Shown here piece after piece: positions 495 to 53,015 of a stretch of 64,000 nucleotides of DNA. The notes under the pieces are model-generated. The model had not been told where the DNA came from. It saw only the letters and a program-made list of their open reading frames with translations, and did not search any database. Position numbers and translations under genes: made by a program. This DNA comes from an uncultured Lachnospiraceae bacterium (GTDB taxonomy: Bacteria; Bacillota; Clostridia; Lachnospirales; Lachnospiraceae): positions 14,140 to 78,139 of the forward strand of contig URUY01000014.1 in NCBI GenBank assembly GCA_900551115.1. Reading direction: 5' to 3'. Position 1 is the first letter of the stretch. Every line of letters starts with the position of its first letter.

Positions 495-508
495 ATTTTC
501 TCTCTCCT

Positions 509-22879: not shown

Positions 22880-24325
22880 TCAGCCAATCAGCCAGTCATA
22901 CATCTCCTGATATTTGCCTGCCGATACCTGCCAGGAAAAATCAGCAGCCATGCCCCGGTCGACAATCTTGTTCCATTCTCTTTTCTTATCGTAATATATG
23001 TGTTCCGCATACCGGATAGTCCGAAGCATCTCATGGGCATTGTAATTGGCAAAGGAAAAGCCCGTTCCGGTACTCTCGTATTCATTGTAAGGCGCTACCG
23101 TATCCTTCAGCCCGCCGGTTTCCCTGACAATGGGCACCGTACCGTAACGCAGCGCCATAAGCTGGCTCAAGCCGCAGGGTTCAAACAAAGAAGGCATCAG
23201 GAATGCATCGCAGGACGCATATATCTTATGTGATAAGTCCTCTGAATAATAAATATTGGCAGACACCTTATCCGCGTATTTCCAGTCAAAATGGCGGAAC
23301 ATATTCTCGTAACGCTCTTCGCCCGTACCTAACACCACAATCTGCACATTATCCTGACAAAGCTCATCCATAATATAGGCAATCAAATCAAAGCCCTTCT
23401 GATCCGTAAGCCTTGAAACGATTCCAATCATGAATTTCTTATCATCCTGTGTCAGATTCAGTTCCTTTTGCAGGGCACGTTTATTTTTTATCTTCTCCTT
23501 CCGGAAGCTGACCGCATCATACGGATAGGGAATATAAGTATCCTTTGCCGGACTGTACTCATCATAATCAATACCGTTTACAATACCGCGCAGATCATGT
23601 GCCCTGGCATTTAAAAGTCCGTTCAATCCTTCTCCGTAAAATTCTGTCTTAATCTCTTCCGCATAGGTATCGCTTACCGTTGTAATGGCATCTGCAAACA
23701 CCAGTCCGCCCTTGAGCAGATTGGCATCCTTGTATGCCTCCAGCTTATCCGGCGTAAAATAGTAATCAGGCAGGCCTGTAATATCCTGTACTGCCTTCAC
23801 ATCCCATTTTCCCTGGAACTTTAAATTATGAATCGTCATAATCGACTTGGTTCCCCAGAAAAACGGATTGCCCCTGAAACGTTCCTTTAAATATACCGGA
23901 ATCAGTCCGGTCTGCCAGTCATGGCAATGCACCACATCCGGTTGAAAATCAATAAGCGGCAGTGCCGAAAGCGCCGCTTTTGAAAAGTAAGCATACTTTT
24001 CTATCTCATACAGCGCATTGTCCCCATAGGGCTTAAAACCGCCGAAATATTGCTCGTTGTCAATAAAATAATATTTGATGCCGTCTGCTTCTGCTTCCAA
24101 AATCCCTACATATACCTCATGCCAGTTAAAATCCATATAAAAATGGGTAACGTATTTTAGCTTCTCCTGCATCTGCGGCTTCATACAGGTATATCTGGGA
24201 ATCATAACCCGCACGTCATAATATTCCTTATCCAAACACTTTGGCAGAGAGCCTACAACGTCAGCAAGCCCGCCGGTCTTAATAAAGGGTACTCCTTCCG
24301 ATGCAACAAACAAAACCTTCTTCAT
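22880..24325 (-). CDS. glgA: glycogen synthase (ADP-glucose type)
   Basis: KTGGLADV motif near the N-terminus. Start moved to internal ATG (MKKVLFVASEG) with GGGAGG RBS. Confidence 0.9.
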   Translation of the reverse strand: MKKVLFVASEGVPFIKTGGLADVVGSLPKCLDKEYYDVRVMIPRYTCMKPQMQEKLKYVTHFYMDFNWHEVYVGILEAEADGIKYYFIDNEQYFGGFKPYGDNALYEIEKYAYFSKAALSALPLIDFQPDVVHCHDWQTGLIPVYLKERFRGNPFFWGTKSIMTIHNLKFQGKWDVKAVQDITGLPDYYFTPDKLEAYKDANLLKGGLVFADAITTVSDTYAEEIKTEFYGEGLNGLLNARAHDLRGIVNGIDYDEYSPAKDTYIPYPYDAVSFRKEKIKNKRALQKELNLTQDDKKFMIGIVSRLTDQKGFDLIAYIMDELCQDNVQIVVLGTGEERYENMFRHFDWKYADKVSANIYYSEDLSHKIYASCDAFLMPSLFEPCGLSQLMALRYGTVPIVRETGGLKDTVAPYNEYESTGTGFSFANYNAHEMLRTIRYAEHIYYDKKREWNKIVDRGMAADFSWQVSAGKYQEMYDWLIG

Positions 24326-24390
24326 TGAAACGCCTCCCGAAACAAACTGTATTTTCTTTATTATACAACATGAAAGGCGCATTTAAAAGA

Positions 24391-24909
24391 CTAATTTCTG
24401 TATTTCAACCTTATTCTGTCTGCAATCAGAGCTATAAATTCGGAATTGGTCGGCTTTCCTTTTCCCGTATTGATTGTATACCCAAACAGAGCGTCTAAGG
24501 TCTCCATTCTTCCTCTGCTCCATGCCACCTCAATGGCATGCCGGATAGCCCTTTCCACACGGCTTGGTGTAGTCCCGAATTTCTTTGCAATGGTGGGATA
24601 CAGGATTTTGGTAATGGAACTGAGCATGGAATTGTCCTCCACCGCCATCATAATGGATTCCCTCAAATACTGGTATCCCTTGATATGTGCCGGCACGCCG
24701 ATTTCATGTATCATATCCGTCACATCCTGCTCCAAATCCCGCTCTTCTGTCCTTTTTACTATCTCTGCGCTGTTTTTTGCCTGAATCTCCTTTTTTCCGG
24801 AGGGTACTGTAATCATAATCTGAAATTCCTTGTCGGTACTCATCAGCTGACCGATTATTTTGTACAGTTTTTCATTATCTTTGGTAGTCAACACGTTAAG
24901 CTGTTCCAT
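24391..24909 (-). CDS. spo0A: Spo0A homologue with an internal deletion of most of the receiver domain (DNA-binding Spo0A_C intact)
   Basis: Residues 1-40 align with the start of the Spo0A receiver ([15 protein letters not shown]… vs B. subtilis MEKIKVCVADDNREL…). Residues ~65-172 are a near-canonical Spo0A C domain ([20 protein letters not shown]…[21 protein letters not shown]…KPTNSEFIA). The region holding Asp56 and the linker is absent. ATG with GGAGG RBS. Confidence 0.8.
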
Positions 24910-24929
24910 GAAAAAACCTCCATATTTTA

Positions 24930-24970
24930 CAAAACTCTATCACACTCATTATAATGTGATAGAGTTTGCA
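24930..24970. promoter_or_regulatory. perfect 15-bp inverted repeat (CAAAACTCTATCACA…TGTGATAGAGTTTTG) with TATAAT in the loop, 20-60 nt upstream of the spo0A-like start
   Basis: Read directly. Could be the terminator of the upstream oxidoreductase gene and/or an operator. Confidence 0.5.
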
Positions 24971-25008
24971 ACTTCAACAGATACGCATCGTATTTATTCT
25001 ACAAATTT

Positions 25009-26394
25009 TTATAATAATCTGCGTCCCATAAGCACGCCCATGGCAGAAGCCATCATCAGTCCTCTGGTCCAGCCGCTGGAATCTCCCAGACAGTAAAGGC
25101 CCTTTACGTTGGTATTTAACTCCGCATCCATTTTTACCTTATTGCTGTAAAATTTCAGTTCGGGAGAATATAAAAGGGTCTCCGTTCCTGCAAAGCCCGG
25201 CACCACATGGTCTACAGCCTGAATAAAATTAATAATGTTCATCATGGCGCGGTAAGGCATTGCCGCCGTAATATCGCCTGCTACGGCATCCGGCAGAGTC
25301 GGCTTTACATTGCTTTGGGACAGCTCCTTCTGCCAGGTTCTTTTTCCGTCCAGAATATCCCCGTAACGCTGCACCATAATCTGTCCCGCTCCCAGCATAT
25401 TGGTAAGCTCGCCCACCTTCTGTGCATAGGCAATCGGCTGGTTAAAGGGCTCCGTAAAATTGTGGGAACACAGAATTGCCAGATTGGTGTTGTCAGATTT
25501 TAAATTTTTGTAGGAGTGACCGTTTACCACCGCCAGACCGCCGTCATAATTTTCCTGACTTACAAAGCCGCCCGGATTCTGACAGAATGTACGGACTTTG
25601 TTTTTAAACGGATGCGGATAACCAATCAGCTTGGACTCATAGAGTACGTTATTGACCTCCTCCATGATTTCATTGCGCACCTCTACCCTGACGCCGATAT
25701 CCACCGTACCCGGCTTATGGGCAATATCATATCTGGCACAGATATTCTGCAGCCAGTCCGCACCACGCCTGCCGGTTGCCATAACTACGCTTTCTGCCTC
25801 ATAAGAATACCGGCTGCCTTTGCATGTGGCGACAACGCCTTTGCATACGCCGTCCTCCATAAGCAAATCCTCACAGCTATAGCCAAAAAGAATCTCTGCC
25901 CCATGCTCTGTTAACCAGTTTTCTATGGCCAGATAAATCTGCTGCGCCTTTTCCGTCCCCAGATGTCTGATGGGACAGTCCACCAGCTTAAGGCCTGCCT
26001 GAATGGCACGCTTTCTGATATCCTTTACCTTTTCCGTATTGCCAAGCCCTTCCACATGGGAATCCGCTCCAAACTCCAAATAGATTTTATCCGTATAATC
26101 AATAAGCTCCTGCGCAAAGGCCTCCCCTACCAGAGAGGGGAAATCACCGCCCACCTCGCAGCTTAAGGAAAGCTTTCCGTCAGAAAAAGCGCCTGCTCCC
26201 GAAAAACCTGTCGTAATATTACAGGGCTCACAGCCTACACATTTTTTTGTTTTAACCTTCGGGCAGCTTCTCTGTTCCACGGCTTTTCCTTTTTCCAACA
26301 TCAGAATCCGCTTTTTACTGCCGTTTTTCAGCATCTCCAGCGCTGTAAAAATACCTGCCGGCCCGGCTCCCACAATAATTACATCATATTTCAT
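25009..26394 (-). CDS. NAD(P)/FAD-dependent oxidoreductase (COG2509-like)
   Basis: Rossmann motif DVIIVGAGPAG. Start moved to internal ATG (MKYDVIIVG) with AGAGAGG RBS. Confidence 0.7.
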   Translation of the reverse strand: MKYDVIIVGAGPAGIFTALEMLKNGSKKRILMLEKGKAVEQRSCPKVKTKKCVGCEPCNITTGFSGAGAFSDGKLSLSCEVGGDFPSLVGEAFAQELIDYTDKIYLEFGADSHVEGLGNTEKVKDIRKRAIQAGLKLVDCPIRHLGTEKAQQIYLAIENWLTEHGAEILFGYSCEDLLMEDGVCKGVVATCKGSRYSYEAESVVMATGRRGADWLQNICARYDIAHKPGTVDIGVRVEVRNEIMEEVNNVLYESKLIGYPHPFKNKVRTFCQNPGGFVSQENYDGGLAVVNGHSYKNLKSDNTNLAILCSHNFTEPFNQPIAYAQKVGELTNMLGAGQIMVQRYGDILDGKRTWQKELSQSNVKPTLPDAVAGDITAAMPYRAMMNIINFIQAVDHVVPGFAGTETLLYSPELKFYSNKVKMDAELNTNVKGLYCLGDSSGWTRGLMMASAMGVLMGRRLL

Positions 26395-26552
26395 ACCCAT
26401 ACCTCTCTTTCCTTCCTGTGCTGCCCAAATGCCGTCAATCGCAAAAAGGAGCATAATACATTTGTATTATACTCCTTTTTCGGCCAATGCTCCAGCATCT
26501 CTTTCATGAATATTCTTCACGAATATCCCGGCATCAGGTTTCCTGTGTCACT

Positions 26553-29048
26553 TTAACATACATCATACTGTTCCGTATCTTTATTATCTCCCGCCCTAAA
26601 TTCCCTTTCACAAGAAACAGAAGAAATCAATTCCTCACTGTCAGGGGCATTTTCACAAAAAAGTAAAAATATATTCTCTTCTCCAACCCAGCATTCGGGA
26701 ATGTAATAGGTATCCTGAGGAATCCCGGACCATATCCGCCCCAGATTATGACCGTTTATATACAATTGTCCTTTTATTCCTTCCGGCAATTTTATAAAAG
26801 CAGGCATCTGTCGGGAAAGCTTTTGCGGTTTTGCCAAATACCAGACCGGAAACTCCCCTCCGTTATTTTCTGCGCTGTCTTCCGGAGTTTGTGACCATTG
26901 GCAGTAATCCAAAGAATATCTGAGCGGAATAAGCGCAGTTAATGCAATTTCTCTGATGGCTTCTTCGCAGGCAGAAACGTATGCCGTAATTTCCACAGTA
27001 TTGTCACCTTTCTGCAGCAGCCTCCGTTCTATTACGCATTCTCCGTATCCCCTGTTGGGATTTTGAAATTCGGCAATCTTACACCCGTTTACCGAAACCT
27101 GTACACAACAATTTAATTCCAAACGCAGATACAGTTCTTCTTCTCCGTCACAGACAAACGTATAAGTAATATACTCCTGCCTGCTGCCGTCAAAATCGGA
27201 AATCCAGTCTATCAGTTCCATGCTTTTTTCTGTGCCCTTATCAGCGTTCAAGACCTTGCTTAACGCCACGGCTCTTCCCTCATATATGGGACCGTAAATT
27301 CCTTTCGGCTCTCCCATTTTTGCAGAGTGATTCAGTCTTCCCAAATTATCCGATAAAACATACAGCGTGTTCTTTCCTGCTTTCAGGGAAACCTCTATAC
27401 CCTCAAAGCCTGCCCCTGCACCCCATGCGCCTATATAATGTCTGGAACTGTATACCAGGCAACGGTCTTCGCTATAGGGAAATACAATATTTTTTATACA
27501 TTCTTCTTTGCTTTCCAGCTCTATGCGGTACCATATATAACCGTAATAAATCCCAAGCTCATCTGCACTCTTTGGTTTGTCCAGTCTTATCCAGTCTTTT
27601 ATGTTTTCCGGATTATCCGTACACAGCTTTTCCCACCTCACCTCTATGGGCAAAGCCTTTTCTGTTTTGTCGCCGCTTTCGTATACCGGTTTTCCCTCGG
27701 ACAGTTTATACCTCTTTGCAGTTTTTGTATCCATAAAGAGTATCTCGATTCCGCAAAGTGTTACCGACCTCGGCTGCTCCTCAATAAAACACGCCGTCCT
27801 GTTCCCGTCCACCTCTACCGTTCCGTACTGTCCCGGTTCTCCATAGAAAATCCATGTTGTACCTAAAAGCCAGAGCGGAATAAAATTTTCACTGCTCACA
27901 ACATGCCCTTTTAACAAAAGATTTTCCAAAAACATAGCTGCGCCGTATTGATTTGTCCGTTCATTGGGTTCCTGATAAAGAACTGCTTTTATCCTCTGCT
28001 CCCCTTTTTCTGCACAAATCAGGGTCTTCGTTTCATCCGTGCTATATTCTGTCCGCATTTCACACAGCTCTGTACCCAGAGAAAGCGCCAGCATATTTAC
28101 CAGGCCTGCTGCATAATATTTTTCACTGCGGATTCCTCCTTCTGAAAGGGGCGCATCCAAATCATAGCTGGTAATCATATAAAAATTCTTTTCATACTGC
28201 AGACGGCCTCCCCAAAAGGAAAAATTGGTTCCTCCATGCCACATATAATATGTATACTGCGCTCCAAAGCACAGAATAGATAAAATCCGCTTATATACCT
28301 CTTTTGGCGAAACCCTTGCGAACGCCCTGCCCCAGGAGTCACAGCCGCCGCACCACAGCTCCGTTATAAGCAGAGGCTTGTCCGGCTGTATCTCTCTCAT
28401 TTTTTCCAAATCCGCTAAAGGCTCGTCCCACGTATTTACACATTCCATCATGTCCAGTATACCGCCTTCAAACATGCGGTTGCAGTTTATAATCGGGATT
28501 TTAAAGCCCGACTTACGGATGATTCTGTTTATATCTTCAAAATACGCTTCCCGGCCCTTCAATCCCGGCATAATATGCTCATTTTCATTTTGTATGAGCA
28601 AAATATTTCCGCCGTGTTCTACGTCATACTTACTTAGTCTTGGTAATATCTGACTAAAATATTTCTCGTATCTTGCCTGAAACACCGGATTATCCGTACG
28701 AAGCCTGATTCCCGAAAGCGTATTCAGATAAGCCGGAAATCCTCCGAAATCCCATTCCGAGCAGATATAGGGACCCGGCCGCAAAATCACATAGAATCCG
28801 TATTCCCCGGCGAGTCTTATATACTCTTCTATATCCGCATCCCCGGTAAAATCATAGCAATCCGGTTCCTGTTCATGAAAATTCCATGCCATATAAGTGG
28901 AAATACAGTTGATTCCGTTTTCTTTTGCTTTTTTAAACCTGTCTTCCCATAGCTGTCCGGGAATCCGGAAATAATGGATTTCTCCGCATACAAGCCAAAT
29001 ACGTTTTCCGTCCACAAAAAAGCTTTTATCATCAAACGTCACTCTCAT
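26553..29048 (-). CDS. beta-galactosidase, glycoside hydrolase family 35
   Basis: N-terminal GH35 signature (…GEIHYFRIP…W.DRF.KAK..G.N.I.TY..WN.HE…RPGPYICSEWDFGG.P.WL). No signal peptide. Confidence 0.85.
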   Translation of the reverse strand: MRVTFDDKSFFVDGKRIWLVCGEIHYFRIPGQLWEDRFKKAKENGINCISTYMAWNFHEQEPDCYDFTGDADIEEYIRLAGEYGFYVILRPGPYICSEWDFGGFPAYLNTLSGIRLRTDNPVFQARYEKYFSQILPRLSKYDVEHGGNILLIQNENEHIMPGLKGREAYFEDINRIIRKSGFKIPIINCNRMFEGGILDMMECVNTWDEPLADLEKMREIQPDKPLLITELWCGGCDSWGRAFARVSPKEVYKRILSILCFGAQYTYYMWHGGTNFSFWGGRLQYEKNFYMITSYDLDAPLSEGGIRSEKYYAAGLVNMLALSLGTELCEMRTEYSTDETKTLICAEKGEQRIKAVLYQEPNERTNQYGAAMFLENLLLKGHVVSSENFIPLWLLGTTWIFYGEPGQYGTVEVDGNRTACFIEEQPRSVTLCGIEILFMDTKTAKRYKLSEGKPVYESGDKTEKALPIEVRWEKLCTDNPENIKDWIRLDKPKSADELGIYYGYIWYRIELESKEECIKNIVFPYSEDRCLVYSSRHYIGAWGAGAGFEGIEVSLKAGKNTLYVLSDNLGRLNHSAKMGEPKGIYGPIYEGRAVALSKVLNADKGTEKSMELIDWISDFDGSRQEYITYTFVCDGEEELYLRLELNCCVQVSVNGCKIAEFQNPNRGYGECVIERRLLQKGDNTVEITAYVSACEEAIREIALTALIPLRYSLDYCQWSQTPEDSAENNGGEFPVWYLAKPQKLSRQMPAFIKLPEGIKGQLYINGHNLGRIWSGIPQDTYYIPECWVGEENIFLLFCENAPDSEELISSVSCEREFRAGDNKDTEQYDVC

Positions 29049-29066
29049 ATATTGGTTTCCTTTTGG

Positions 29067-30992
29067 TTATTCTTTTACGAAGGCTGCCCGGAAACGAAAA
29101 CGTGCATCTTCTTCATACCACATCACAAAATTTGTGCCCCACACATTGTTGTACAGATTGAAATAGGAACCGTTTGTTTCAGGCATTTCATCAGTAAAAT
29201 TTAACAGGGACGGCTTTCCGGGGGCTACCAGTGCCGCGTCAAGGCTTTCTATTATAACATCCTTGTATTTTACCCCGAAATCCGTTGCATGAAGCCTTCT
29301 TCCGCCCTTGTTCACTATATCTTTGCAATCAATCCATTCACCCAGTTTTCTGACTGCCATATTCTTAGAAAGAGGATTTATGCCAAACCAAAGCGCCTCG
29401 GGAATTCTGCTTGCATCTTTATGAAACCACCCAAAATCCATATCTACGGAATCTTTTTCTATCTGTATTTTTAACATCAGTTCTCTGGGCGCTCCGTAGA
29501 TTTCACAGGCCGTTTCTTCAAATTCCATAAAGCATATAACCGAATTCCGGTTCTTATAAGCTTTCTTAAGCCTTGGTCTTTCCGCAAAATATTCTTTTAC
29601 AGCTGCTTCTTCTCCTATTTTCTGAAAATCCTCCAATGCCCAATCAGCTTTATTCGTCACATACTGACTTACAAACCTGTCGTATTCTTTTTGGGAAAAC
29701 ACCTCGTAAAAACAGTCTGCCCACAAATGCTTTTTATCTGCAAGGATTCTGTCCTGACAGCGCAGATATTCTATGGCGCCGTTTTCATTTAACAAAATTT
29801 CTGCCCCATCCAGCCTGCAAATCTGCCTTATGTCTGAAATTTCTTCATACCCTTTTACGGACGGCTGTACTGTTTTATACTGACTGACTGCATGAAGCGC
29901 CTCTGCTTTGTGAACGCCTTTCAGGGCTTTTACCGCATCCGTTACAAAGGCCCGCTGTTCCTCCCATGACTTTTCCATCCGGCAGAATCCCGGAAGCCCT
30001 CTGGCTGCCTGAAACTCTTTTTTGATAAAATAGCGGTATTCACCTTTTCTTTCTTCTATCCACGTACCTAAGTGTGTTTTTTCATCCATTCCCCATGTAT
30101 GTTCGGGCACCAAAAGCAGCTTACTGTAAACAGCTGCTTTTTCCTGTGGCGAATAGCTGCGGACGCACCTAAGCAGCGCTCGATACCTGCTAAGCTTTAA
30201 TGGGTCTGAACCAACACCATGAATCCAGCTGTCACCGATTTCTTTTGTTACAACCGGCAGATTTTTTACCGGCAATACCGCTTCTGCAATATCATTCAGC
30301 GTTCCCGCATGGATGTAAGCGTCCGGATATTTCTCTTTCAGTTCCTGATAGACTTTTAAAATACTTTCTGCTGACTGCGGCCCCAGGTTATCCCCGGTAT
30401 GCGCAAAATATACCGCCGTTTCCGTTCCGGGAATCCTTGTAAAATCGCCGTAATCACAGTTATACATTACTATAATTTCTTCCCCGCTGTCTGCTCTCCA
30501 CAAAAACAGTTCGGGAACATCCGGTATTGACGATGCGGGGTTGACTCCGATATGTAAAAACCGTATTCCCGCCTTATACAGAAACGGAATCATCGCCTTG
30601 GTGTGTCCCGGCACATCCGTCATTTTTGCAGCAATGGTTTTCTTGCAGAATCTTTTATCCAGATTTTTTGAAATATGCAGTCCATACGTAAATAATTCTG
30701 CATCCATCAGCTCCGTATGCGTTGTAAACGGCAGACCATTCCATGAAATTTCATTATGCCGTATAGCTTCCTCCATACTTTCTCTTTGTATGTTATCAGC
30801 CCGCTCCAAAAACTGCTCTATCAGCCATGAACCCACCGTCCAGATAAATTTTTCCTCTCTGCCGCGCAGTTCCTCTGCTACCTTCATTGCCTTGGGAATA
30901 AAGGACTGTATATATGTATCTACCACATTTTTTGCAAAATCAGTGAAGCCTACGTCCAAATGCGTCTTAAACAATACTATGATTTCTTTCAC
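29067..30992 (-). CDS. putative glycoside hydrolase (GH38-like N-terminal domain)
   Basis: 641 aa with N-terminal …VLFKTHLDVGFTD… H-x-D metal-binding style motif. Family assignment is tentative. Confidence 0.4.
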   Translation of the reverse strand: MKEIIVLFKTHLDVGFTDFAKNVVDTYIQSFIPKAMKVAEELRGREEKFIWTVGSWLIEQFLERADNIQRESMEEAIRHNEISWNGLPFTTHTELMDAELFTYGLHISKNLDKRFCKKTIAAKMTDVPGHTKAMIPFLYKAGIRFLHIGVNPASSIPDVPELFLWRADSGEEIIVMYNCDYGDFTRIPGTETAVYFAHTGDNLGPQSAESILKVYQELKEKYPDAYIHAGTLNDIAEAVLPVKNLPVVTKEIGDSWIHGVGSDPLKLSRYRALLRCVRSYSPQEKAAVYSKLLLVPEHTWGMDEKTHLGTWIEERKGEYRYFIKKEFQAARGLPGFCRMEKSWEEQRAFVTDAVKALKGVHKAEALHAVSQYKTVQPSVKGYEEISDIRQICRLDGAEILLNENGAIEYLRCQDRILADKKHLWADCFYEVFSQKEYDRFVSQYVTNKADWALEDFQKIGEEAAVKEYFAERPRLKKAYKNRNSVICFMEFEETACEIYGAPRELMLKIQIEKDSVDMDFGWFHKDASRIPEALWFGINPLSKNMAVRKLGEWIDCKDIVNKGGRRLHATDFGVKYKDVIIESLDAALVAPGKPSLLNFTDEMPETNGSYFNLYNNVWGTNFVMWYEEDARFRFRAAFVKE

Positions 30993-31018
30993 TCGCTACC
31001 TCCGCTTTCTGTAAACAG

Positions 31019-31906
31019 CTATTCTTTGACCGCTCCCAAAACCAATCCCGTCATAAAGAAACGCTGCAAAAACGGATACAATATCAGAATAGGAAGCATG
31101 GAAACCACAATTTTGGCCATATTCAAGGTACTGTTAGATACTTCAGTCAGCAGCAGCATTTCCTCCGGCGTGTATAACCTGAGATCATTTACGGACACAA
31201 CCAGCTGTTGGATATATGTCTGCAGGGGGTAATTATCTGAATTCATAAGTATCAATCCGTTAAAGAAATCATTCCAAATGCCTACTAAGGAAAACAATGT
31301 AACCGTTGCTAACGCTGGCAGGGAAAGAGGAATATATATTTTCCACATTACAGACCATTCGCTCGCCCCGTCCATAACCGCCGCCTCATTTAATTCCTTG
31401 GGAAGATTTCTGAAAAAATTCATCAGCATAATAACATTCCCTGCAGGCACTGCGCTCGGCAGCACCAATGCCCATATCGTATTTAATATATTCAGTTTTG
31501 CTATCGTCATGTACCAGGGTATCAGTCCTCCGCTGAAAAGAGTTGTAAAAACCACCGTCCACATAAACACATTCCGCAGTCTGAATTCTTTTTTTGTCTT
31601 CGACAGGGGATATGCCATTAAAATGGTAAGAACAAAGCTCAGGCTTCCTCCCAGTATCACTCTGACAACAGATATCATCGTGGCTCTGAAAAATTTAGCG
31701 TCCTGTAATATTACGCCATATGCCTTTAAGGTAAAATCTACCGGAAAAATAGTAACCCTGCCGGCTGCTACTGCTGACTTATCGCTTAAAGAAATTGCAA
31801 TCGTATTCAGCAGCGGATATGCGCATAAGGCCGCCATAATGATTAAAAAAACAATAATAAATGCATATCCTATTTTATCCGCTATTGACCGGTTCTTCAT
31901 AACCAT
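31019..31906 (-). CDS. carbohydrate ABC transporter permease (LplC/YtcP-like)
   Basis: 295 aa, 6 TM. EAA-type loop (…LNEAAVMDGASEW…). Confidence 0.85.
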   Translation of the reverse strand: MVMKNRSIADKIGYAFIIVFLIIMAALCAYPLLNTIAISLSDKSAVAAGRVTIFPVDFTLKAYGVILQDAKFFRATMISVVRVILGGSLSFVLTILMAYPLSKTKKEFRLRNVFMWTVVFTTLFSGGLIPWYMTIAKLNILNTIWALVLPSAVPAGNVIMLMNFFRNLPKELNEAAVMDGASEWSVMWKIYIPLSLPALATVTLFSLVGIWNDFFNGLILMNSDNYPLQTYIQQLVVSVNDLRLYTPEEMLLLTEVSNSTLNMAKIVVSMLPILILYPFLQRFFMTGLVLGAVKE

Positions 31907-31918
31907 ATCCGTACCTTT

Positions 31919-32812
31919 CTAAAAGATTCTGTAATTTGCGAATTTCTCCGCCGCCTTATGCGCTATAACCATAAGCACCAACCCCACACAGGACTTTAAT
32001 AAGCCTACTGCCGCGGCAAAACTAAACTGCATACTTTCAAGTCCCATTCGGTATACAAAGGTATCCAGAATATCCACCTTATCATAAACCAAAGGATTGT
32101 ACAGGTTAAAAATCTGATCAAAATTTGCATTCATGATATTGCCGATGTTCAATGTCAGCAACAAAAGAATGGTCGGCGCCATGCCGGGAAGCATGATGTA
32201 GCGCACCCTCTGCAGCCTGCTTGCTCCTTCTAAGCGCGCTACCTCATATTGGTTGGGATTGATACCTGACAAAGCTGCCAAATATACAATTGTTCCAAAC
32301 CCGGCTTCCTTTATCACATCTGTCAGTATAATAAGCGGTCTTACAAAGTTACCGTCAGCAAAAAACAATATACCTTCTTCAACGCCAAACATTGACAATA
32401 AACCGTTTACCGGACCGTTTAAATCAAAAATATTCAATAAAATTCCTGAAATTGCTACCCATGACAAAAAATGAGGAATATAAATAATCGTCTGTATCGT
32501 TTTCTTAAATACTTTGTTTCCCACTTCGTACAGCATTATTGCCAGTATGACGGAAAGCAGCGTATTTAAAATAATCTTTGAAGTAGCAATAAATACGGTA
32601 TTAAATATAATCTGCTTGATATCCGGTATTTGAAACAGGAATTCAAAATACTCCAGTCCTACAAATTCTGAACCCAAAATACCCTTGGTCGGCACATATT
32701 TCTGAAATGCCATTACAACCCCGAACATGGGAATTATACTGAATATTACTAGAAGTATCATTCCCGGTAATATCATTAACGTATACACAATATTTCTTGT
32801 TTTAAAACGCAC
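31919..32812 (-). CDS. carbohydrate ABC transporter permease (LplB-like)
   Basis: 297 aa, 6 TM. Sequence resembles LplB/MalF-type permeases (…ILTDVIKEAGFGTIVYLAALSGINPNQYEVARLEGAS…). Confidence 0.85.
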   Translation of the reverse strand: MRFKTRNIVYTLMILPGMILLVIFSIIPMFGVVMAFQKYVPTKGILGSEFVGLEYFEFLFQIPDIKQIIFNTVFIATSKIILNTLLSVILAIMLYEVGNKVFKKTIQTIIYIPHFLSWVAISGILLNIFDLNGPVNGLLSMFGVEEGILFFADGNFVRPLIILTDVIKEAGFGTIVYLAALSGINPNQYEVARLEGASRLQRVRYIMLPGMAPTILLLLTLNIGNIMNANFDQIFNLYNPLVYDKVDILDTFVYRMGLESMQFSFAAAVGLLKSCVGLVLMVIAHKAAEKFANYRIF

Positions 32813-32840
32813 AATACTACCTCCCTACAGGGTAAAACAT

Positions 32841-34508
32841 TTACTTTACCATTTCTCTGACTTCCTGCGTAATCTCGTCTCCGCCAGCCTGCTTCCACTC
32901 TTCCACAAAGGTGTCAAAAGCATCTACCGGAAGCTCGCCGATAATAATTTTTATCACAGTTTCATCATACATTTTTTCAAGCATTCCCCACTTCAGCTCC
33001 ATAGACGCGGTCTTGCCGTAAAAAGCAATTTCCTTACGGGCAATTTGTTCGCCGGAGGTCAATGCCTGTCCTTCGTATCTTGCAGTCGCTTCTGCCCAGT
33101 CTGAGCTGTTTGTTCTGGGGCTTTCCTGATTCTTTATATACGCATCATAGCCGGTCTTATAGAAGTAAGGTAAATCATCTCCGTTACCCTCCTTGATTGC
33201 ATTGTCAATCGCTTCATAGTAGCGGAAAACTGCGTCTTCATAATCCAGCACCAGATTTACCGGCCATACTCCGGCAGTACCATTGTTTAAAGAAATAATA
33301 TCTTTTGCATCTTCCAAAAAGCCTTTTCTTGCACATTCTACTACGTTGAGAGTCTTAATAACCGCTTCCGGGTTTTCACAATCCTTACTGATAACCAAAT
33401 ATTCTCCGCTGGGATTCTGGGTAACTGTCTTAACCTGTCCGTTAGCGTCTACCGGCGCCAGATAAGGCTTCCAGTCTGCATCCGGGTTGTTTTTTACAGA
33501 ATCGTTAAGCGGCCAATACGGCGCATACCAGGGACCAAAGAAAATACCGCACTGGTCGTTAGCAATTAACGTACTTGCATCATTGCCCTGCTGCCTTACC
33601 GCAAACTGCCTGTCTATAATGCCTTCCTCGTACATAGCGTTTATTTCTGTCAGCGCTGTTTTCATTTCAGGCGCAATAGAACCATAGATAATTTCACCGT
33701 CTGCATTTTTAATCCACTGACGCGGATAAGCATCATACAGTCCAAAAACCGTATCCAATAAATACATCCAGTTATAATATCCTGCTACCTCCGGCGCAAC
33801 GGGAATACCGATGGTATCATCCTCGCCATTACCATCAGGGTCATTTTCCACAAAGCTCTTGGCGATCATTTTAATGTCTTCTAATGTCTTAGGTTCAGAT
33901 AACCCCAGCTTGTCCATCCAGTCTTTTCTTACCCATACAAGCATATGCTCTCCGGCAAGCTTACAGGATGGCAGCGCCATGATTTGTCCGTCAAAGGTTA
34001 CAGGTTCTAATATTCTTCCGTTATAAGAATCGTAATAAGATTTAATTTCATCACACAGCGTTTTTTCATAATATTCATCCAAAGGAAGTATCATATCCGC
34101 TTCCACCAGCTGCTGCAGCGTAAGCTCATCTACAATCAGTGTGTCGGGCATGTCTTTATTGGCAATACTTAACGTTACTTTCTGGGCATAGGCATCCTGT
34201 GCCACGGTCCATGCATAATCTACTTCAACATTAATCTTGTCTTTGATATACCTTGAAAAAAGGTTGTCCTCCAAAGTATCACCTTCCGGCAGATTGGTAA
34301 GAACCGGTTCCACAATTCCCTGTGTAATCGTGACGGTTTCCGGGTACTTGCTAAAGGGTTCCAGCATATCATCCTGTGCATTGTCACCTGCAATACTTTC
34401 CACCGTTTCTTTATCCGTAGAATCCAGATTCTGCGTTTTACCGCCCCCACACCCAATCAGTGACAGCATCATAACAACTGTTAACATACCGGCTATAACT
34501 CTTTTCAT
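32841..34508 (-). CDS. extracellular solute-binding lipoprotein (LplA-like)
   Basis: 555 aa. Signal peptide with lipobox LSLIGC. Family-1 SBP size and composition. Confidence 0.8.
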   Translation of the reverse strand: MKRVIAGMLTVVMMLSLIGCGGGKTQNLDSTDKETVESIAGDNAQDDMLEPFSKYPETVTITQGIVEPVLTNLPEGDTLEDNLFSRYIKDKINVEVDYAWTVAQDAYAQKVTLSIANKDMPDTLIVDELTLQQLVEADMILPLDEYYEKTLCDEIKSYYDSYNGRILEPVTFDGQIMALPSCKLAGEHMLVWVRKDWMDKLGLSEPKTLEDIKMIAKSFVENDPDGNGEDDTIGIPVAPEVAGYYNWMYLLDTVFGLYDAYPRQWIKNADGEIIYGSIAPEMKTALTEINAMYEEGIIDRQFAVRQQGNDASTLIANDQCGIFFGPWYAPYWPLNDSVKNNPDADWKPYLAPVDANGQVKTVTQNPSGEYLVISKDCENPEAVIKTLNVVECARKGFLEDAKDIISLNNGTAGVWPVNLVLDYEDAVFRYYEAIDNAIKEGNGDDLPYFYKTGYDAYIKNQESPRTNSSDWAEATARYEGQALTSGEQIARKEIAFYGKTASMELKWGMLEKMYDETVIKIIIGELPVDAFDTFVEEWKQAGGDEITQEVREMVK

Positions 34509-35926
34509 CTTTTTTCCTCCTCATCTCTTAACAGGTTTACCGTGCAAATTTCAAACGCCTTTACTTTATGGCATTCCTTCTGTAACTCAAACAAAGCATT
34601 TCCGGTACTCATAATCTTATAGGTTCCGTCCCCCATATCGATTACAATCCCGATAGCCGAGCTGGTAGTACTAAAACGGACCTCCGTTCCGTTTATCTCC
34701 CGCTGCTCTGTAAAAATTTCCTTTGTGTTTCCAAAGCAGTTAAAATAGAATATATCTTCATTACTTCGCCGTACGGCAATATCCTCCATCACCCTGCCAA
34801 GCATTCCAAAAATTCCTCTGACCAGAGGCGTATGCGGCTGCGTATCATTTCCGTTCTCATCCAGCAGAAAATTGTCGGAGCCTTTCGTTGTTTCCGCCAG
34901 CCGGTATACATCTGCACCTGCGCCGTCTGCTGCCAAAACCTCGATTATGCAGTTATGCATAAACGGCTGATGTCCCGGCAATTCACTGATATGCGGCATA
35001 TTGTCATCCTGTGAAAAATATTCTTTCAACTGTTTATAGGTGGTCATCTGATCATAGCCATAGGTATCTATCCCTATAAAGTCTATATAACAGGGTGTAC
35101 TGGAAAGAATCTTATGCAAATCTTCATCCACCTCATAATACGGCCAAATAAAATTAACCCTTGTAAAAATATCCATATTATCCTTTACTGTCCGGGCTAT
35201 TTTATTTAAGTATACCGCCAGCCTGTCTTTTGAAAACTCTATATCATCCGTATAACCGTTTTCCTCAAAAATCCGGTTGCAGGTATTGCAAAAACAGCGT
35301 TTCGTCTGAACCATGGTTGGATTGTGCTGCATAATAGAGGGTTCGTTTTCTACCTGAAAACCAATAACCACACCGTTTTTATCAAACGCTTTGATATGCC
35401 GCATCATTTCTGCAAGCAGTTTGGTTTCGCGTTCAAGCAGTCTGTCATTTTCCCGGCAAAGAGAAATTTTTCTTCCATCGCTGTTTTCATAACTTCCTCC
35501 AACCACTTCCCCATTCTCATTTAAAATCCTCTGATAGGTCTTTTGGTCGTCAATAATATAATCCGGCGTCACATTTCCCCATCCTGAGCCGCACACATCC
35601 GAACCAAACCACACAATTTCAAGCTTTAAATTATTTTCTTCACATTCGGTGATTGCAAAATCAAGATTTGTCCAGTCATATATTCCCTCAGAAGGTTCAC
35701 ATTCCCTAAAACATACAGGAACCTGAACCGTATTACAGTTTAAATTTTTCGCCCATCTGAAGATTCCTTTTTCATGTATGGTTTTATTATCTGCTTTTTG
35801 TTCCCGTCTCCAAAGATCCAGCCTGATTTGAATACCGTATGTCTGAAATGGTTTTCCATGAACATAAATGACCTTTTTTCCGTTAGGAAGCTTTCTGATA
35901 CATGAACGTTCTTTTATTTCCTGCAT
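34505..35926 (-). CDS. putative clan GH-A glycoside hydrolase (GH5-like)
   Basis: 473 aa with …FQVENEP… (NEP acid/base motif). No signal peptide. Stop overlaps the start of the SBP gene. Confidence 0.45.
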   Translation of the reverse strand: MQEIKERSCIRKLPNGKKVIYVHGKPFQTYGIQIRLDLWRREQKADNKTIHEKGIFRWAKNLNCNTVQVPVCFRECEPSEGIYDWTNLDFAITECEENNLKLEIVWFGSDVCGSGWGNVTPDYIIDDQKTYQRILNENGEVVGGSYENSDGRKISLCRENDRLLERETKLLAEMMRHIKAFDKNGVVIGFQVENEPSIMQHNPTMVQTKRCFCNTCNRIFEENGYTDDIEFSKDRLAVYLNKIARTVKDNMDIFTRVNFIWPYYEVDEDLHKILSSTPCYIDFIGIDTYGYDQMTTYKQLKEYFSQDDNMPHISELPGHQPFMHNCIIEVLAADGAGADVYRLAETTKGSDNFLLDENGNDTQPHTPLVRGIFGMLGRVMEDIAVRRSNEDIFYFNCFGNTKEIFTEQREINGTEVRFSTTSSAIGIVIDMGDGTYKIMSTGNALFELQKECHKVKAFEICTVNLLRDEEEKR

Positions 35927-36104
35927 TCTCCCTCCTATCCCCCATATCCAGAATCCCGGGTATCTGCATATATGAAGTATTTTTCCTACAATTAAATTAT
36001 ACCGACAAACACCTCTTACGGATATATAACAATATTTTGATACATATAAAAATTTTTAGATGCTTTGTGCAAAATAACAAATTGTGGAATAAAATCCACC
36101 TTAT

Positions 36105-36133
36105 TGACTTATATTTTGACTATTGCTATACTA
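36105..36133 (+). promoter_or_regulatory. candidate promoter (TTGACT-17-TATACT) for yesN-yesM
   Basis: Read directly in the AT-rich intergenic region. Confidence 0.4.
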
Positions 36134-36181
36134 AAAATACTCAAATATCCTATATAAAATACACAAAAAGGAAGACTTGAT

Positions 36182-37399
36182 ATGTTACATTTGTTAATTG
36201 TAGACGACAACAAGCTGGAACTTATGGGAATCAGAAAAGTGTTAAAAGATAACTTTCCTGATTTGGTCATCTATGAAGCAGGCAATGGCGATGCCGCATT
36301 AGATTTTATTGCACATAATATAATAGATATCGTCATTAGCGATATCAAAATGCCTTTAATGGACGGCATTACCCTTAGCCAAAAGCTTTCCCAGCATTAT
36401 CCGGAAATAAAAATTCTGCTGCTCAGTGCCTACGGGGAATTTGAATATGCCCAGTCCGCCATCAGATACGGTGTAAAATATTATCTTTTAAAGCCTGTCA
36501 ATATTAAGGAACTGATAGCGGCAGTTACAGAGCTTTGCGCCTCCATATCCGATTCCCCCCTCTCCTTTTCGGAAAACCAGCTTTCAGAAATACATAAAAA
36601 AACACTGCTGTATAATCTGTTTTACGAAAAAGAAATCGGAGAAAAGAGCTTTAAGCTGCTGGAGGTATTTTATCCTCAGTATATAAACAAGCCGTTTTAT
36701 CTCGGAGCCCTGTTTTTTTCGGCGGACGTTTTTGATCAATACGAAGAAATACCCCGCCATTTAAAAAGACTGTTTTCTACAGATTTCCTTATTTTAAACG
36801 AAACACAGATGGTTTTTTTACTTGCAGAAAACGAAGGTGCAATAGAAGCGCAAATAAAAAAAATAGAGACCAAAGTAAAATCTCTTTCCTATCTTCCGAA
36901 GGCCTCTCTTTTTATTGACCGTCTGTTTGGACTGGACGAGATTTTTTCTTCCTTTTGTCAAATGAACCAGCGTACTGTATTTCGGGAGGTTTTTTCCGTT
37001 TTTGACCTGAAAGACAACCAGCCAGACGCTGAAAAGGGTAACGAAAACCTGCAGACAGAAAAAAAGAATGAGGCTATCATAAACACCGTTAAGGATATTA
37101 TTAACACAAGGTATCAGCACGACCTCTCCTTAGACAGTCTGGCCGAAAGCGTATTCCTTTCTCCCAGTTACCTATGCTCCATTTTCCACAGGCATGAGCA
37201 GAAAACACTGACTATGTACATATGCAATGTGCGTCTGAATAAAGCTATAGAGCTGCTGCTGAATACAAACATGAAAATTTCCGACATTTCCGCTTCTGTG
37301 GGATACCGCCACAGCGCATATTTCTGCAAACTGTTCAAAGACCGTTTTGGAGAAACTCCATCAGAATTCAGAACCAGGAAAAATTACGAACCGGAGTAA
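36182..37399 (+). CDS. yesN: two-component response regulator, receiver + AraC-type HTH
   Basis: 405 aa with CheY-like receiver (…LLIVDDN…DIVISDIKMP) and C-terminal AraC HTH. Confidence 0.85.
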   Translation: MLHLLIVDDNKLELMGIRKVLKDNFPDLVIYEAGNGDAALDFIAHNIIDIVISDIKMPLMDGITLSQKLSQHYPEIKILLLSAYGEFEYAQSAIRYGVKYYLLKPVNIKELIAAVTELCASISDSPLSFSENQLSEIHKKTLLYNLFYEKEIGEKSFKLLEVFYPQYINKPFYLGALFFSADVFDQYEEIPRHLKRLFSTDFLILNETQMVFLLAENEGAIEAQIKKIETKVKSLSYLPKASLFIDRLFGLDEIFSSFCQMNQRTVFREVFSVFDLKDNQPDAEKGNENLQTEKKNEAIINTVKDIINTRYQHDLSLDSLAESVFLSPSYLCSIFHRHEQKTLTMYICNVRLNKAIELLLNTNMKISDISASVGYRHSAYFCKLFKDRFGETPSEFRTRKNYEPE

Positions 37400-37404
37400 G
37401 GACA

Positions 37405-39072
37405 ATGAGAGTACTATGGGATAATTTCAGTATCAGAACTAAATTTTTACTGCAGCTTTTATCGGTTACTGTTATCACGATTTCCATTATTTCAGGCTAT
37501 TATATCTTTGAATCCTCACAGACGCTGAAAAAGGAGCTGATATCCGGCAATTTAAGCGTCCTTGATAAAAGTATGCTAAATGTGACCAAAGAGCTGGACA
37601 CCATTGTCAACTCTGCCAATACCCTTGCCAATTATACGCCTTTAATCAACGCATTTTCCATAAATTATGAAGACGTCTTTCAGCTGCATGATGTATATGA
37701 AAAAGAGATTACTCCCATTATCTCCATTATGGAATATCCCAATCCCTATATGAATCACGTTAAATTCTATATCGACAATGATTCCTTTCATTTCTATAAC
37801 ATTATGCCCATTGACGAAGCCCGTGGCGAAGAATGGTTTGACTCAATATGCAGCAGCAGGGATTATTATATAACCGGCCATTATAATAATACCATCAGTA
37901 TCATCAGCAAAACCGTAAGCAGTCAATCCGGCTGCATCATCTATGTACCGGTTAATATCAATCGCCTGTTTAAAGACATGGTATACCTGGACGATTCCTT
38001 ATATATCATAAAGTTTGGAGATGAAATTGTAGGAACCTTTCCCGAACAGCTTCATATAACAGATACCTCCGACACATTTCTGCAGTATAACGGTAATCAC
38101 TATACAAAGCTGGCGGTCAGGTCGGATAAATATGATTTGGAAATTATAAAGTATGTAAACAATTCCCATTTGGTTATTGATTTAAATGCAACCCTTTGGA
38201 AATTTTGTTTTATTATTTTTCTCCTGTTTACAGCCATATTCTTCTTATCGCTTATGTTTTCAAAGAGCATTACGAAAAAAATAAAGCTGCTAAATGACTC
38301 TATGAATATAATTGAGCAGGGCAATTTTAACCTTGTGCTTCCTAATACCAGTAAGGATGAGGTGGGACAGCTGACAGATAAGTTTAATGTTATGACGCAA
38401 AAAATTAACCAGCTTATTAAGGATATCGTACAAAACAGCATACGAAACAAAGAACTGGAGGTAAAGCTTCTCAGTGCCCAGATAAAGCCGCATTTTTTAT
38501 ATAACACCCTGTCAACTATAAGCTGGATGGCAACCTTTGAGTATACCGATGAAATAAAAGAAATTGTAGAAAACATCTGCGCCTTTTATCGAACCAGTTT
38601 AAATAACGGAGGAAATTTTACCACGGTTAAGGATGAGCTGTTAAATATTAAATCCTATATCACTTTAGAGCAATTTATGCATCCTGATTTATTTGACGTA
38701 TCCTACGAAATCGAAGATGACGTCCTCAGCCGTCAAATCCCCAATTTCATACTGCAGCCTTTTGTAGAAAACAGCATTGTCCATGCTTTCAATAAAATGA
38801 GAACCGGAAAAGGAGGTCTTGTACTCAAGGCCGTATATTCACAAAATGAGATTCTTTTCACCATTTCCGATAACGGAATCGGCATTGAACCGAATACGCT
38901 CGCTAAGCTGCTTGTAACATCAAATCCTAAAAACAACTACGGTATTTACAATGTCAACAAGCGTCTCGAACTGCTGTACGGGACCGGTTATCCCTATATA
39001 CAGATTGAAAGCCAAATCTTACGGGGCACCTGCGTTACAATACGCATTCCCGACTGCCATAAAGCCGACTGA
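37405..39072 (+). CDS. yesM: sensor histidine kinase (YesM-like)
   Basis: 555 aa with TM, HAMP and His_kinase internal region (…QIKPHFLYNTLSTISWMA…) plus HATPase_c. Confidence 0.85.
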   Translation: MRVLWDNFSIRTKFLLQLLSVTVITISIISGYYIFESSQTLKKELISGNLSVLDKSMLNVTKELDTIVNSANTLANYTPLINAFSINYEDVFQLHDVYEKEITPIISIMEYPNPYMNHVKFYIDNDSFHFYNIMPIDEARGEEWFDSICSSRDYYITGHYNNTISIISKTVSSQSGCIIYVPVNINRLFKDMVYLDDSLYIIKFGDEIVGTFPEQLHITDTSDTFLQYNGNHYTKLAVRSDKYDLEIIKYVNNSHLVIDLNATLWKFCFIIFLLFTAIFFLSLMFSKSITKKIKLLNDSMNIIEQGNFNLVLPNTSKDEVGQLTDKFNVMTQKINQLIKDIVQNSIRNKELEVKLLSAQIKPHFLYNTLSTISWMATFEYTDEIKEIVENICAFYRTSLNNGGNFTTVKDELLNIKSYITLEQFMHPDLFDVSYEIEDDVLSRQIPNFILQPFVENSIVHAFNKMRTGKGGLVLKAVYSQNEILFTISDNGIGIEPNTLAKLLVTSNPKNNYGIYNVNKRLELLYGTGYPYIQIESQILRGTCVTIRIPDCHKAD

Positions 39073-39084
39073 CCACAGTCAGCT

Positions 39085-40503
39085 TTATGGCTGGGAAAGC
39101 ATTTCTTCTATAAATATACCGTAACCGCTGGTGGCGTCATTTACCAGCACATGCGTCACCGCCCCTACGATTTTACCGTTCTGTATAATGGGCGCACCGC
39201 TCATTCCCTGCACAATACCGCCGGTAATAGCAATCAATTCCGGGTCTGTTACCTGAAGCACGATTCCCTTGTTTACATTGATATGGTCCAGATGCAGCTC
39301 TTTAATCTTAATATCGTAATATTTGGGCTTTCCGTCCACTGTACAGAGAATCTGCGCTTCTCCTGCTTCTACCTCCTGCTTCAGGCCGATAGGAAGCGCC
39401 TCTTCTTCTATCTGCTCAAGCATTTCCTCATTGCAGACACCAAATATCCCTTTTGTCGTATTATCCGTAATGACGCCCAAAATATTTTTATCAGAATAAT
39501 CTATCATTCCCGTCATTTCTCCGGGCTCGCCCTTAGTTCCCTTTTTGATTGCTATAATATCGGTATGATACAGCGTGCCGCTGTCCAGCTTCATAACAAG
39601 ACTGGTATCCACATCATTAATGCCATGTCCCAGCGCTCCGAAATTCCCTTCGCTGTCCACATAGGTCATGGTACCCACGCCCTGGGCGCTGTCTCTGACC
39701 CAAATCCCCAGCTTATACTCGCCGTTTTGATTTTTTACCGGCACAGCTTCCACATCAAACTCTTCTTCTCCTCTGCGTATGGAAAGTACAATAGGCTTTC
39801 CGCCTGCCTTTTCAACGGTCTTCATAAAATCCTTTTTACCCGTTACCGCCTCGCCGTCCACCGCTAGAATATAATCGCCGGTTTTCAATAAATACCGGGA
39901 CGGTGAAACGCTGCTTCCGTCCTGCGCAGAAAAATCTCCTACGCCGATTACAAGCACACCGTCTGTTTTTAAGTAAATTCCAATAGGCAGCCCTACCGGA
40001 AACAGGGTTTTGTCCTTTATGACCTCAATATTAACCTGTTTAAAGGGAATCCATCCAAACAGCTTTAAATTCATCTGATAACTGCTTAACGTATCTGCTT
40101 TCATTGTTACCTGGCTGCTCAAATCTATATGGATGGCATCCACCGGAATATTGGACTTGCCCTGTCCGTTTACCGTAACCGCCCGCATATTTTCTTCCTC
40201 TCTCTCTTCCAGCCTGACAATCTCTCCCTCTACAGGCAGGCAGATATCTAGGATTTGCTCCTCGCCCACCTTTAATTTAATATCACCCGGAATCTGCTCA
40301 TAGATACGCAAAAGCCAGACACCAAAAAGGGTCATGCAGGTAACAAAAAATGCACCTACAAGGCATCTTCTGTATATTTTCTTTCTCTTTATAATCTTTT
40401 TTGTAGTTTCTGTTTTTCCCGCCTCTTTCACTTTTGCCTCCTTATGTTTCTGTCCATTCAAAAAAAGAGCATCCTTATCGGATACTCTTTTTATTGTTGT
40501 CAC
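39085..40503 (-). CDS. spoIVB: stage IV sporulation protein B (S55 signal peptidase)
   Basis: PDZ domain and S55 signature GT.TYVD….FGALGH. TM anchor at N-terminus. Start may be downstream of the annotated ORF start. Confidence 0.85.
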   Translation of the reverse strand: MTTIKRVSDKDALFLNGQKHKEAKVKEAGKTETTKKIIKRKKIYRRCLVGAFFVTCMTLFGVWLLRIYEQIPGDIKLKVGEEQILDICLPVEGEIVRLEEREEENMRAVTVNGQGKSNIPVDAIHIDLSSQVTMKADTLSSYQMNLKLFGWIPFKQVNIEVIKDKTLFPVGLPIGIYLKTDGVLVIGVGDFSAQDGSSVSPSRYLLKTGDYILAVDGEAVTGKKDFMKTVEKAGGKPIVLSIRRGEEEFDVEAVPVKNQNGEYKLGIWVRDSAQGVGTMTYVDSEGNFGALGHGINDVDTSLVMKLDSGTLYHTDIIAIKKGTKGEPGEMTGMIDYSDKNILGVITDNTTKGIFGVCNEEMLEQIEEEALPIGLKQEVEAGEAQILCTVDGKPKYYDIKIKELHLDHINVNKGIVLQVTDPELIAITGGIVQGMSGAPIIQNGKIVGAVTHVLVNDATSGYGIFIEEMLSQP

Positions 40504-52916: not shown

Positions 52917-53015
52917 GTTCTTGTCCTCCAAATTTATTCGCCGGGGCTTACGCCTCCATATTGTCTGTATAAGCCTGCCGCTTTCCTGTTTTTATGTCTG
53001 CCGCCTTTTCTTACT

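Follow-up and report, generated by a model that had tools for sequence, protein, structure and literature searches.

Debate on how the initiation of sporulation evolved turns on which kinases or relays feed the receiver of Spo0A, the response regulator at the head of the pathway. Davidson et al. (2018, PMC6136694) describe it as a canonical response regulator that every known sporulator encodes. The locus described here raises the question of what this master regulator becomes once its receiver is gone. The window, by which we mean the whole stretch of 64,000 nucleotides that was analysed (assembly GCA_900551115.1 from an uncultured Lachnospiraceae bacterium, contig URUY01000014.1, positions 14,140 to 78,139), encodes on its reverse strand a spo0A gene of greatly reduced length. 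Judged from its sequence, the gene is with high confidence a conserved, functional, receiver-deleted orthologue of spo0A in the canonical spo0A slot. A preliminary description of the same DNA had drawn attention to this gene, and its claims are taken up below where the evidence bears on them.

Domain architecture of the short protein

The short gene and its parts are as follows.

24391-24909, reverse strand: short spo0A coding sequence, 172 amino acids plus stop, positional orthologue of spo0A (open reading frame, or ORF; Pfam, NCBIfam and PDB matches; synteny)
24802-24909, reverse strand: N-module, residues 1-36, remnant of receiver beta1-alpha1-beta2 (placement by hidden Markov model, or HMM; MAFFT)
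24742-24801, reverse strand: hypervariable linker, residues 37-56, with the deletion junction at or inside it (identity; nonsynonymous divergence, or pN; AlphaFold2, or AF2)
24394-24741, reverse strand: complete Spo0A_C effector domain, for DNA binding and transcription activation, residues 57-172 (PF08769; 1fc3 and 1lq1)

Spo0A_C (PF08769) matches residues 63-166 over its entire model (positions 1-104 of 104, E 4.3e-46, 155.6 bits), and the solved Spo0A C-domains 1fc3 and 1lq1 match residues 56-171 with E about 1e-48. The recognition-helix segment is identical to that of Bacillus subtilis Spo0A. The ORF, the Pfam match and the two structures bear out the preliminary description of a 172-residue protein with an intact effector domain. 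Response_reg (PF00072) gives no match in the protein by Pfam search, even at E<=1. The NCBIfam equivalog model for Spo0A, TIGR02875, aligns only over model positions 126-259 and reaches 201.6 bits, a bare pass of its cut-off of 200. The protein goes under 'sporulation transcription factor Spo0A' in some sources and under 'Spo0A C-terminal domain-containing protein' in one.

The N-terminus belongs to the start of the receiver. In a MAFFT alignment with full-length Lachnospiraceae and B. subtilis Spo0A, residues 1-40 lie on beta1-alpha1-beta2 of the full-length protein, initiator Met on initiator Met, and the acidic pair D-D appears as K-D, with Lys in place of the first Asp. An HMM made from 56 full-length Lachnospiraceae Spo0A sequences served for receiver placement. 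The N-termini (first 40 residues) of all 18 short forms score 7-19 bits at HMM positions 1-32/39, with no alternative placement. An origin of the N-terminus from beta5-alpha5 was also considered, since tblastn put residues 11-55 on alpha5 and the linker, next to the C-domain, of some full-length proteins; the 56-protein HMM rules it out. Because the HMM sets all 18 N-termini at the start of the receiver, the short protein is an internal in-frame deletion, in which receiver residues from about 37 to about 140 are gone. With these roughly 100 residues went the phospho-acceptor Asp and the conserved Thr and Lys, together with alpha2-alpha5 and the dimer surface formed by alpha4-beta5-alpha5. The acceptor site through which phosphorylation would switch the protein is thus absent from it. 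The preliminary description had stated that the first 40 or so receiver residues are kept and that the phosphorylatable Asp and the dimerisation surface are missing. The first statement agrees with residues 1-36 at HMM positions 1-32/39, and the second with the HMM, the MAFFT alignment and the start of the TIGR02875 match at position 126.

An in-frame stop lies nine codons 5' of the ATG, and the preceding gene stops 99 bp away; therefore a hidden receiver is not encodable there. A search of the window with a full-length Spo0A query returned nothing further near the short gene, and no other reading frame conceals a receiver. The AF2 monomer has a confident C-domain, a disordered linker (predicted local distance difference test, pLDDT, below 50 at residues 38-54) and a helix at residues 11-24 (pLDDT 64-77).

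Conservation, selection and phylogeny

Short-form proteins make up at least 120 clusters. The 120 best-scoring clusters (90% identity) all have Spo0A_C alone, at 79-100% identity, and nearly all are 171-175 residues long. Seventeen GTDB species representatives carry the short form, at 67-80% identity in loci L007-L022 and at 59% in L023 (L numbers denote loci fetched for comparison, and P numbers database proteins). The sources are gut metagenome-assembled genomes (MAGs), from rabbit, mouse and deer among others, plus one isolate, A24_16.AM.DSS (L021). Carrier records are named Acetatifactor sp. or Lachnospiraceae bacterium.

Constraint follows the modular plan of the protein. Mean pairwise identity among orthologues is 0.68 in the N-module and 0.17 in the linker, which varies in length as well, and K27-P36 of the N-module is invariant in 38 sequences. 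Measured by pN, the C-domain (0.09) and the N-module (0.19) are constrained and the linker (0.61) is not, with synonymous divergence (pS) saturated at 0.75-0.85. Relative to the divergence of the C-domain, the N-module is about as constrained as the same 36 residues in full-length proteins.

The unusual length of the gene, and that alone, would favour an assembly artefact or a recent pseudogene remnant, both of which the preliminary description had raised as concerns. The identical 172-residue protein is found on 23 contigs, in assemblies from ENA, NCBI and Logan, which excludes the artefact. As for a remnant, pN is 0.09-0.19 where pS is about 0.8. Every orthologue has an unbroken ORF, and the orthologues display neither relaxed selection nor frame breaks nor patchy conservation. 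Independent assemblies with one sequence, and orthologues of the same length under strong purifying selection across species, rule out both possibilities for practical purposes.

Scored against an HMM of the canonical C-domain, the window protein reaches 220 bits and 17 clade members 215-228, values comparable to the 205-235 bits of canonical Spo0A. The L023 short form reaches 190.5 bits, and two extra paralogues 143 (L023_FL) and 184 (L057_b). Of the 18 short forms placed in a neighbour-joining tree, 17 group together as a single clade within Lachnospiraceae Spo0A; the exception is L023. Because these 17 are monophyletic, the tree points to one old deletion event.

Other departures from the usual Spo0A architecture were seen among database proteins. 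P0154 is a homologue of 182 residues that keeps the receiver from beta1 to about beta3 and lacks the acceptor Asp, so receiver loss in Spo0A may have occurred more than once. P0134 is a 258-residue chimera that joins a Cys-rich N-terminus, unrelated to receivers, to a C-domain with the signature of the short clade, 86% identical to the window protein; it may represent a host effector domain captured by a mobile element or phage. Many database proteins, 315-454 residues long, have two to four copies of Spo0A_C in tandem (P0121-P0125, P0135, P0143, P0149), and P0145, with 1077 residues, has Spo0A_C at its end.

The spo0A slot and its surroundings

Four further features of the window define the position of the short gene.

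22880-24382, reverse strand: glgA (glycogen synthase), conserved 3' neighbour of spo0A in Lachnospiraceae (Glyco_transf_5, Glycos_transf_1)
25009-26454, reverse strand: gene for a flavin adenine dinucleotide (FAD)-dependent protein, between spoIVB and short spo0A in this species (Pfam FAD-depend_C, FAD_binding_2)
26516-39097, no strand assigned: strain-variable sugar-utilisation island of 12,582 bp that parts spoIVB from the spo0A slot (missing in L002 and L004; junction sequences)
39085-40503, reverse strand: spoIVB, canonical 5' neighbour of spo0A (Peptidase_S55, E 1.1e-82; conserved order recN-spoIVB-spo0A)

The preliminary description assigned the short gene to a non-canonical locus and took the canonical slot after spoIVB to be empty. 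Comparison with other loci overturns both points. Full-length spo0A (about 265 residues) lies between spoIVB and glgA in L024, L030, L033, L045, L064, L067, L075, L078 and more, and glgA is found 3' of both short and full-length spo0A in most fetched loci. The related species L013, L016 and L019 have the short gene directly 3' of spoIVB, followed by glgA. Six loci with the identical protein are displayed. Four of them (L002, L004-L006) read ispA-dxs-tlyA-nadK-argR-recN-spoIVB-(FAD gene)-short spo0A-glgA-murJ-NFACT, and two have the arrangement of the window. In L002, L004-L006, L013, L016 and L019, then, the short gene sits where full-length spo0A sits elsewhere. By position it is the spo0A orthologue and fills the canonical slot; in the window it is merely displaced from spoIVB by the FAD gene and the strain-variable island. 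The FAD gene is present in L002, L004-L006 and the P0018 species (L090), and missing in L013, L016 and L019.

The island is an insertion, because near-identical strains lack 26516-39097. It is present in the window, L001 and L003 and missing in L002 and L004-L006, and the flanks of the island-free L002 and L004 are 99.0-99.4% identical to the window. It is irrelevant to the identity of the short gene. Its genes encode a GH35 protein, a DUF5054 protein, two ATP-binding cassette (ABC) permeases, a DUF4978/GH42-like protein, and yesN-like and yesM-like products; in the binding-protein position is an ORF of 555 residues without a Pfam match. The preliminary description was right that in this window spoIVB is followed by convergent yesN/yesM-like genes and a sugar locus. 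The island sits right after the spoIVB stop and carries no integrase, and the C-terminus of spoIVB differs slightly at the junction.

Cargo in the spoIVB-spo0A interval differs by species, and the glgA-murJ side is stable (L087, L090-L092, L018, L023). The cargo includes a helix-turn-helix regulator, small ORFs and the FAD gene in L090, ArsR and a Cd/Zn ATPase in L023, and a cation-efflux gene and ABC exporters in L087. The interval looks like an insertion hot spot. Farther upstream, the gene order from spoIIIA to spoIVB had been described as intact. This is true only in part, as three extra genes lie between spoIIIAH and asp23: at 50120-54170 the window encodes a metalloenzyme-superfamily protein, peptide-chain release factor RF3 and a transglutaminase-like protein.

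The chromosomal setting also bears on whether the gene might be a phage-derived truncated spo0A, or lie in a prophage. Spo0A homologues with the effector domain only are known from the virome (Schwartz et al. 2023, PMC10294663), Spo0A_C is encoded by 307 stretches in IMG/VR, and there is a PHROG match, phrog_37855. Against this, housekeeping genes in conserved chromosomal synteny flank the short gene, its N-module and promoter are homologous to those of full-length chromosomal spo0A, and its C-domain nests among Lachnospiraceae orthologues. Among the best 80 viral matches, all but two consist of the C-domain only, at no more than 70% identity, and the two that reach farther towards the N-terminus (L106, L110) are only 42-46% identical. 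One 'phage' record is really a bacterial spoIVB-spo0A-glgA fragment: L173 (MT835504.1 22214-28555, from INPHARED, labelled 'UNVERIFIED: Bacteriophage sp.', human faeces) has spoIVB, then a full-length spo0A, then glgA, as bacteria do. Among virome matches to 'phage spo0A', some at least are therefore bacterial DNA. A phage origin of the short gene is very improbable.

Promoter region

Three elements lie upstream of the short gene.

24917-24921, reverse strand: ribosome-binding site GGAGG, 7 nt 5' of the ATG (direct reading; kept in orthologues)
24948-24977, reverse strand: sigma-70-type promoter, TTGAAG, 18 nt, TATAAT (consensus scan, 10/12 matches)
24932-24967, no strand assigned: perfect inverted repeat with 13-nt arms at 24932-24944 and 24955-24967 and a 10-nt spacer (arms 100% complementary)

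Across the aligned upstream regions of eight orthologues, GTTG...18 nt...TTATAATG does not vary, and the layout of the short-gene promoter is homologous to that of full-length spo0A promoters. The short-form promoters also share a GCGATG element just 5' of the -35 hexamer. For a wider comparison, upstream regions were taken from short-form loci L001, L007-L023, L087 and L090 and from full-length loci L024-L086. The 0A box TGTCGAA occurs within 250 nt upstream of 32 of 51 full-length genes versus 3 of 20 short genes (Fisher p 4e-4, for samples that are not phylogenetically independent). For a protein active without a signal, the loss of positive autoregulation would be understandable.

The inverted repeat is centred on the -10 hexamer, TATAAT, which lies in its spacer. 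The preliminary description had noted the embedded TATAAT correctly and had made the repeat a perfect one of 15 bp; the perfect arms measure 13 nt. The window contains the repeat once, against a chance expectation of 0. It is perfect in this species alone and only imperfect in the closest species. If transcription came from upstream, it would fold as RNA into a hairpin of -24.8 kcal/mol (z -4.3), with UUUUG behind it. From its sequence the repeat may be an operator-like dyad or the terminator of the upstream FAD gene. A repeated operator was considered and rejected, as no second copy occurs in the window, even at three mismatches.

Proposed function and alternatives

On balance we favour the view that the short protein is a phosphorylation-independent regulator acting at 0A boxes and derived from an old in-frame receiver deletion in a spo0A orthologue. 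The deletion arose in a clade of uncultured gut Lachnospiraceae and left a receiver-less protein which, judged by its unchanged recognition helix, probably still binds 0A boxes. His-Asp phosphotransfer could not switch such a protein, and its output would be set by the amount made. Expression would be driven by the conserved sigma-A-type promoter, with the autoregulatory 0A box largely lost. The conserved N-module may contribute constitutive self-association or partner binding in place of phosphorylation-driven dimerisation. These roles are favoured because a strand-helix-strand unit, two hydrophobic strands around one helix, is unlikely to be stable alone. The alpha1 helix of a receiver is the one that normally docks kinases and phosphotransferases. 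This helix is kept in the N-module, which could hold the protein together as a dimer constitutively or offer a regulatory partner a place to dock. The preliminary description had suggested rewired control of initiation or a constitutive 0A-box binder; as a functional reading this is reasonable for a protein that is conserved and under selection.

Several points weigh against this view. Domain anatomy, orthology and selection are observed, and to these we add by inference the binding of 0A boxes, constitutive activity and a role for the N-module. The AF2 monomer has only moderate confidence for the N-module. The carriers are mostly MAGs and only putative spore-formers. Constitutively active Spo0A is harmful in B. 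subtilis; some brake must therefore exist. Finally, a full-length spo0A may be present elsewhere in the same genome, beyond the loci compared.

This last point leads to the most serious competing explanation, in which a full-length phosphorylatable Spo0A encoded elsewhere still controls initiation and the short protein is an auxiliary 0A-box binder (competitor, primer or mixed-oligomer partner). Two or three spo0A genes were reported in 11 of 118 genomes with Spo0A, all from Clostridiales (Galperin et al. 2022, bioRxiv 10.1101/2022.02.25.481979). Locus L057 has two Spo0A paralogues, and L023, from a distant short-form genome, has both a short form and a full-length paralogue, with receiver and Spo0A_C, 7.5 kb apart in one 20-kb locus. 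However, the C-domain of the full-length L023 paralogue is divergent (143 bits) and that of its short form is nearer to canonical (190 bits). The family of the L023 paralogue consists of five clusters at 83% identity or more; the next matches, at 53% or less, are canonical C-domains of other taxa. The short-form C-domain exhibits no relaxed constraint. For the 16 genomes of L007-L022, no second spo0A locus was found among the best 80 of at least 600 stretches, which speaks weakly against such a partner. We regard control by a full-length Spo0A elsewhere as doubtful and yet as the most probable of the alternatives.

The two loci with extra copies are arranged as follows. In L023, from a Lachnospiraceae MAG (SGB_5482), the full-length paralogue (L023:1831-2694) is upstream of spoIVB and the short form (L023:10001-10531) is downstream of spoIVB, before glgA. 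L057, a 3-kb rumen MAG contig, has divergent full-length paralogues at 464-1246 (reverse strand) and 1723-2550 (forward strand), one of them with a diverged C-domain. The L023 paralogue was also considered as a general partner of short forms; this idea was dropped because its close relatives amount to five clusters and the matches beyond them are canonical Spo0A from other taxa.

A further explanation is that sporulation was lost in the clade and the short protein became a transcription factor repurposed for non-sporulation genes. Non-spore-formers make up 40 of 118 species with Spo0A (Galperin et al. 2022), and a machine-learning tool classed 24 of 24 Lachnospirales MAGs, an Acetatifactor MAG included, as non-sporulating (PMC12536801). 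The autoregulatory 0A box is mostly lost upstream of short genes, as described above. Nothing specific on sporulation in Acetatifactor was found in the literature. Against loss of sporulation, both the window and the clade at large keep genes specific to it intact (the spoIIIA operon and spoIVB), although synonymous sites have become saturated since the clade arose: spoIIIAA, AB, AE, AH and spoIVB in the window, and spoIVB in L013, L016, L018 and L019. Conservation of the C-domain, moreover, equals that in genuine Spo0A and extends to surfaces beyond the recognition helix. We consider loss of sporulation improbable.

The stronger form of the favoured view, that the receiver-less regulator is the only Spo0A in the clade and that these bacteria still sporulate, is held tentatively, as less likely than not. 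If it is true, sporulation is decided there without His-Asp phosphotransfer to the master regulator, and control has moved to spo0A transcription and perhaps also to the 36-residue N-module. Sporulation may then begin in these bacteria with no need of the usual switch, provided that the genome has no intact copy at another place. In a vertically inherited, receiver-less orthologue, under selection beside intact sporulation genes, nature would have carried out an experiment in initiation independent of phosphorylation and given an example of how a master switch is rewired. The finding also has a practical side. Marker-based prediction of sporulation in gut MAGs counts such genomes as ordinary spo0A-positive ones and overlooks the missing switch, because the short protein barely clears the TIGR02875 cut-off and some sources label it 'Spo0A'.

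Comparison with known systems

Canonical Spo0A and the short form agree in effector domain, recognition-helix segment, spoIVB-glgA slot, promoter layout and tree placement. Canonical Spo0A differs in having the full receiver, the D-D acidic pair and, usually, an upstream consensus 0A box.

No description of a chromosomal receiver-less Spo0A orthologue came up in full-text searches of the literature, the nearest precedent being virome spo0A. Homologues of spo0A from the human-gut virome lack the receiver and, in the proposal of Schwartz et al. (2023, mBio, PMC10294663), act independently of host signals. Both kinds have the effector and are without the receiver; the virome genes are on virome or phage contigs, whereas the short form is chromosomal, syntenic and vertically inherited.

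Once the Spo0A receiver is removed or crippled, activity no longer depends on phosphorylation (Grimsley 1994; Ireton 1993; both cited in PMC10294663). In the laboratory forms of B. subtilis Spo0A, the isolated C-domain (Grimsley et al. 1994) and sad67 (Ireton et al. 1993), the effector is freed from an intact phosphorylatable receiver, as it is in the short form. By analogy, the short form would be expected to bind DNA and activate transcription independently of phosphorylation. The likeness to sad alleles and to isolated Spo0A-C drawn in the preliminary description is supported in this sense, as a shared loss of phospho-control. The sad67 allele is reportedly a small in-frame deletion in which the phospho-acceptor Asp is kept. 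Unlike the laboratory forms, the short form is natural, clade-wide and old, and it has lost nearly the whole receiver, with a 36-residue remnant under selection.

The extra spo0A paralogues of Clostridiales share the protein family of the short form and come from the same bacterial order. Those seen here are full-length with a diverged C-domain (143 and 184 bits), while the short form has the ancestral slot and a canonical C-domain.

GerE is a LuxR/NarL-type output domain without a receiver, a free-standing transcription factor controlled by its own expression. By analogy only, GerE and the short form may be set side by side as stand-alone output domains; GerE has a different fold family and no homology to the short form, and it does not derive from the master regulator of its pathway.

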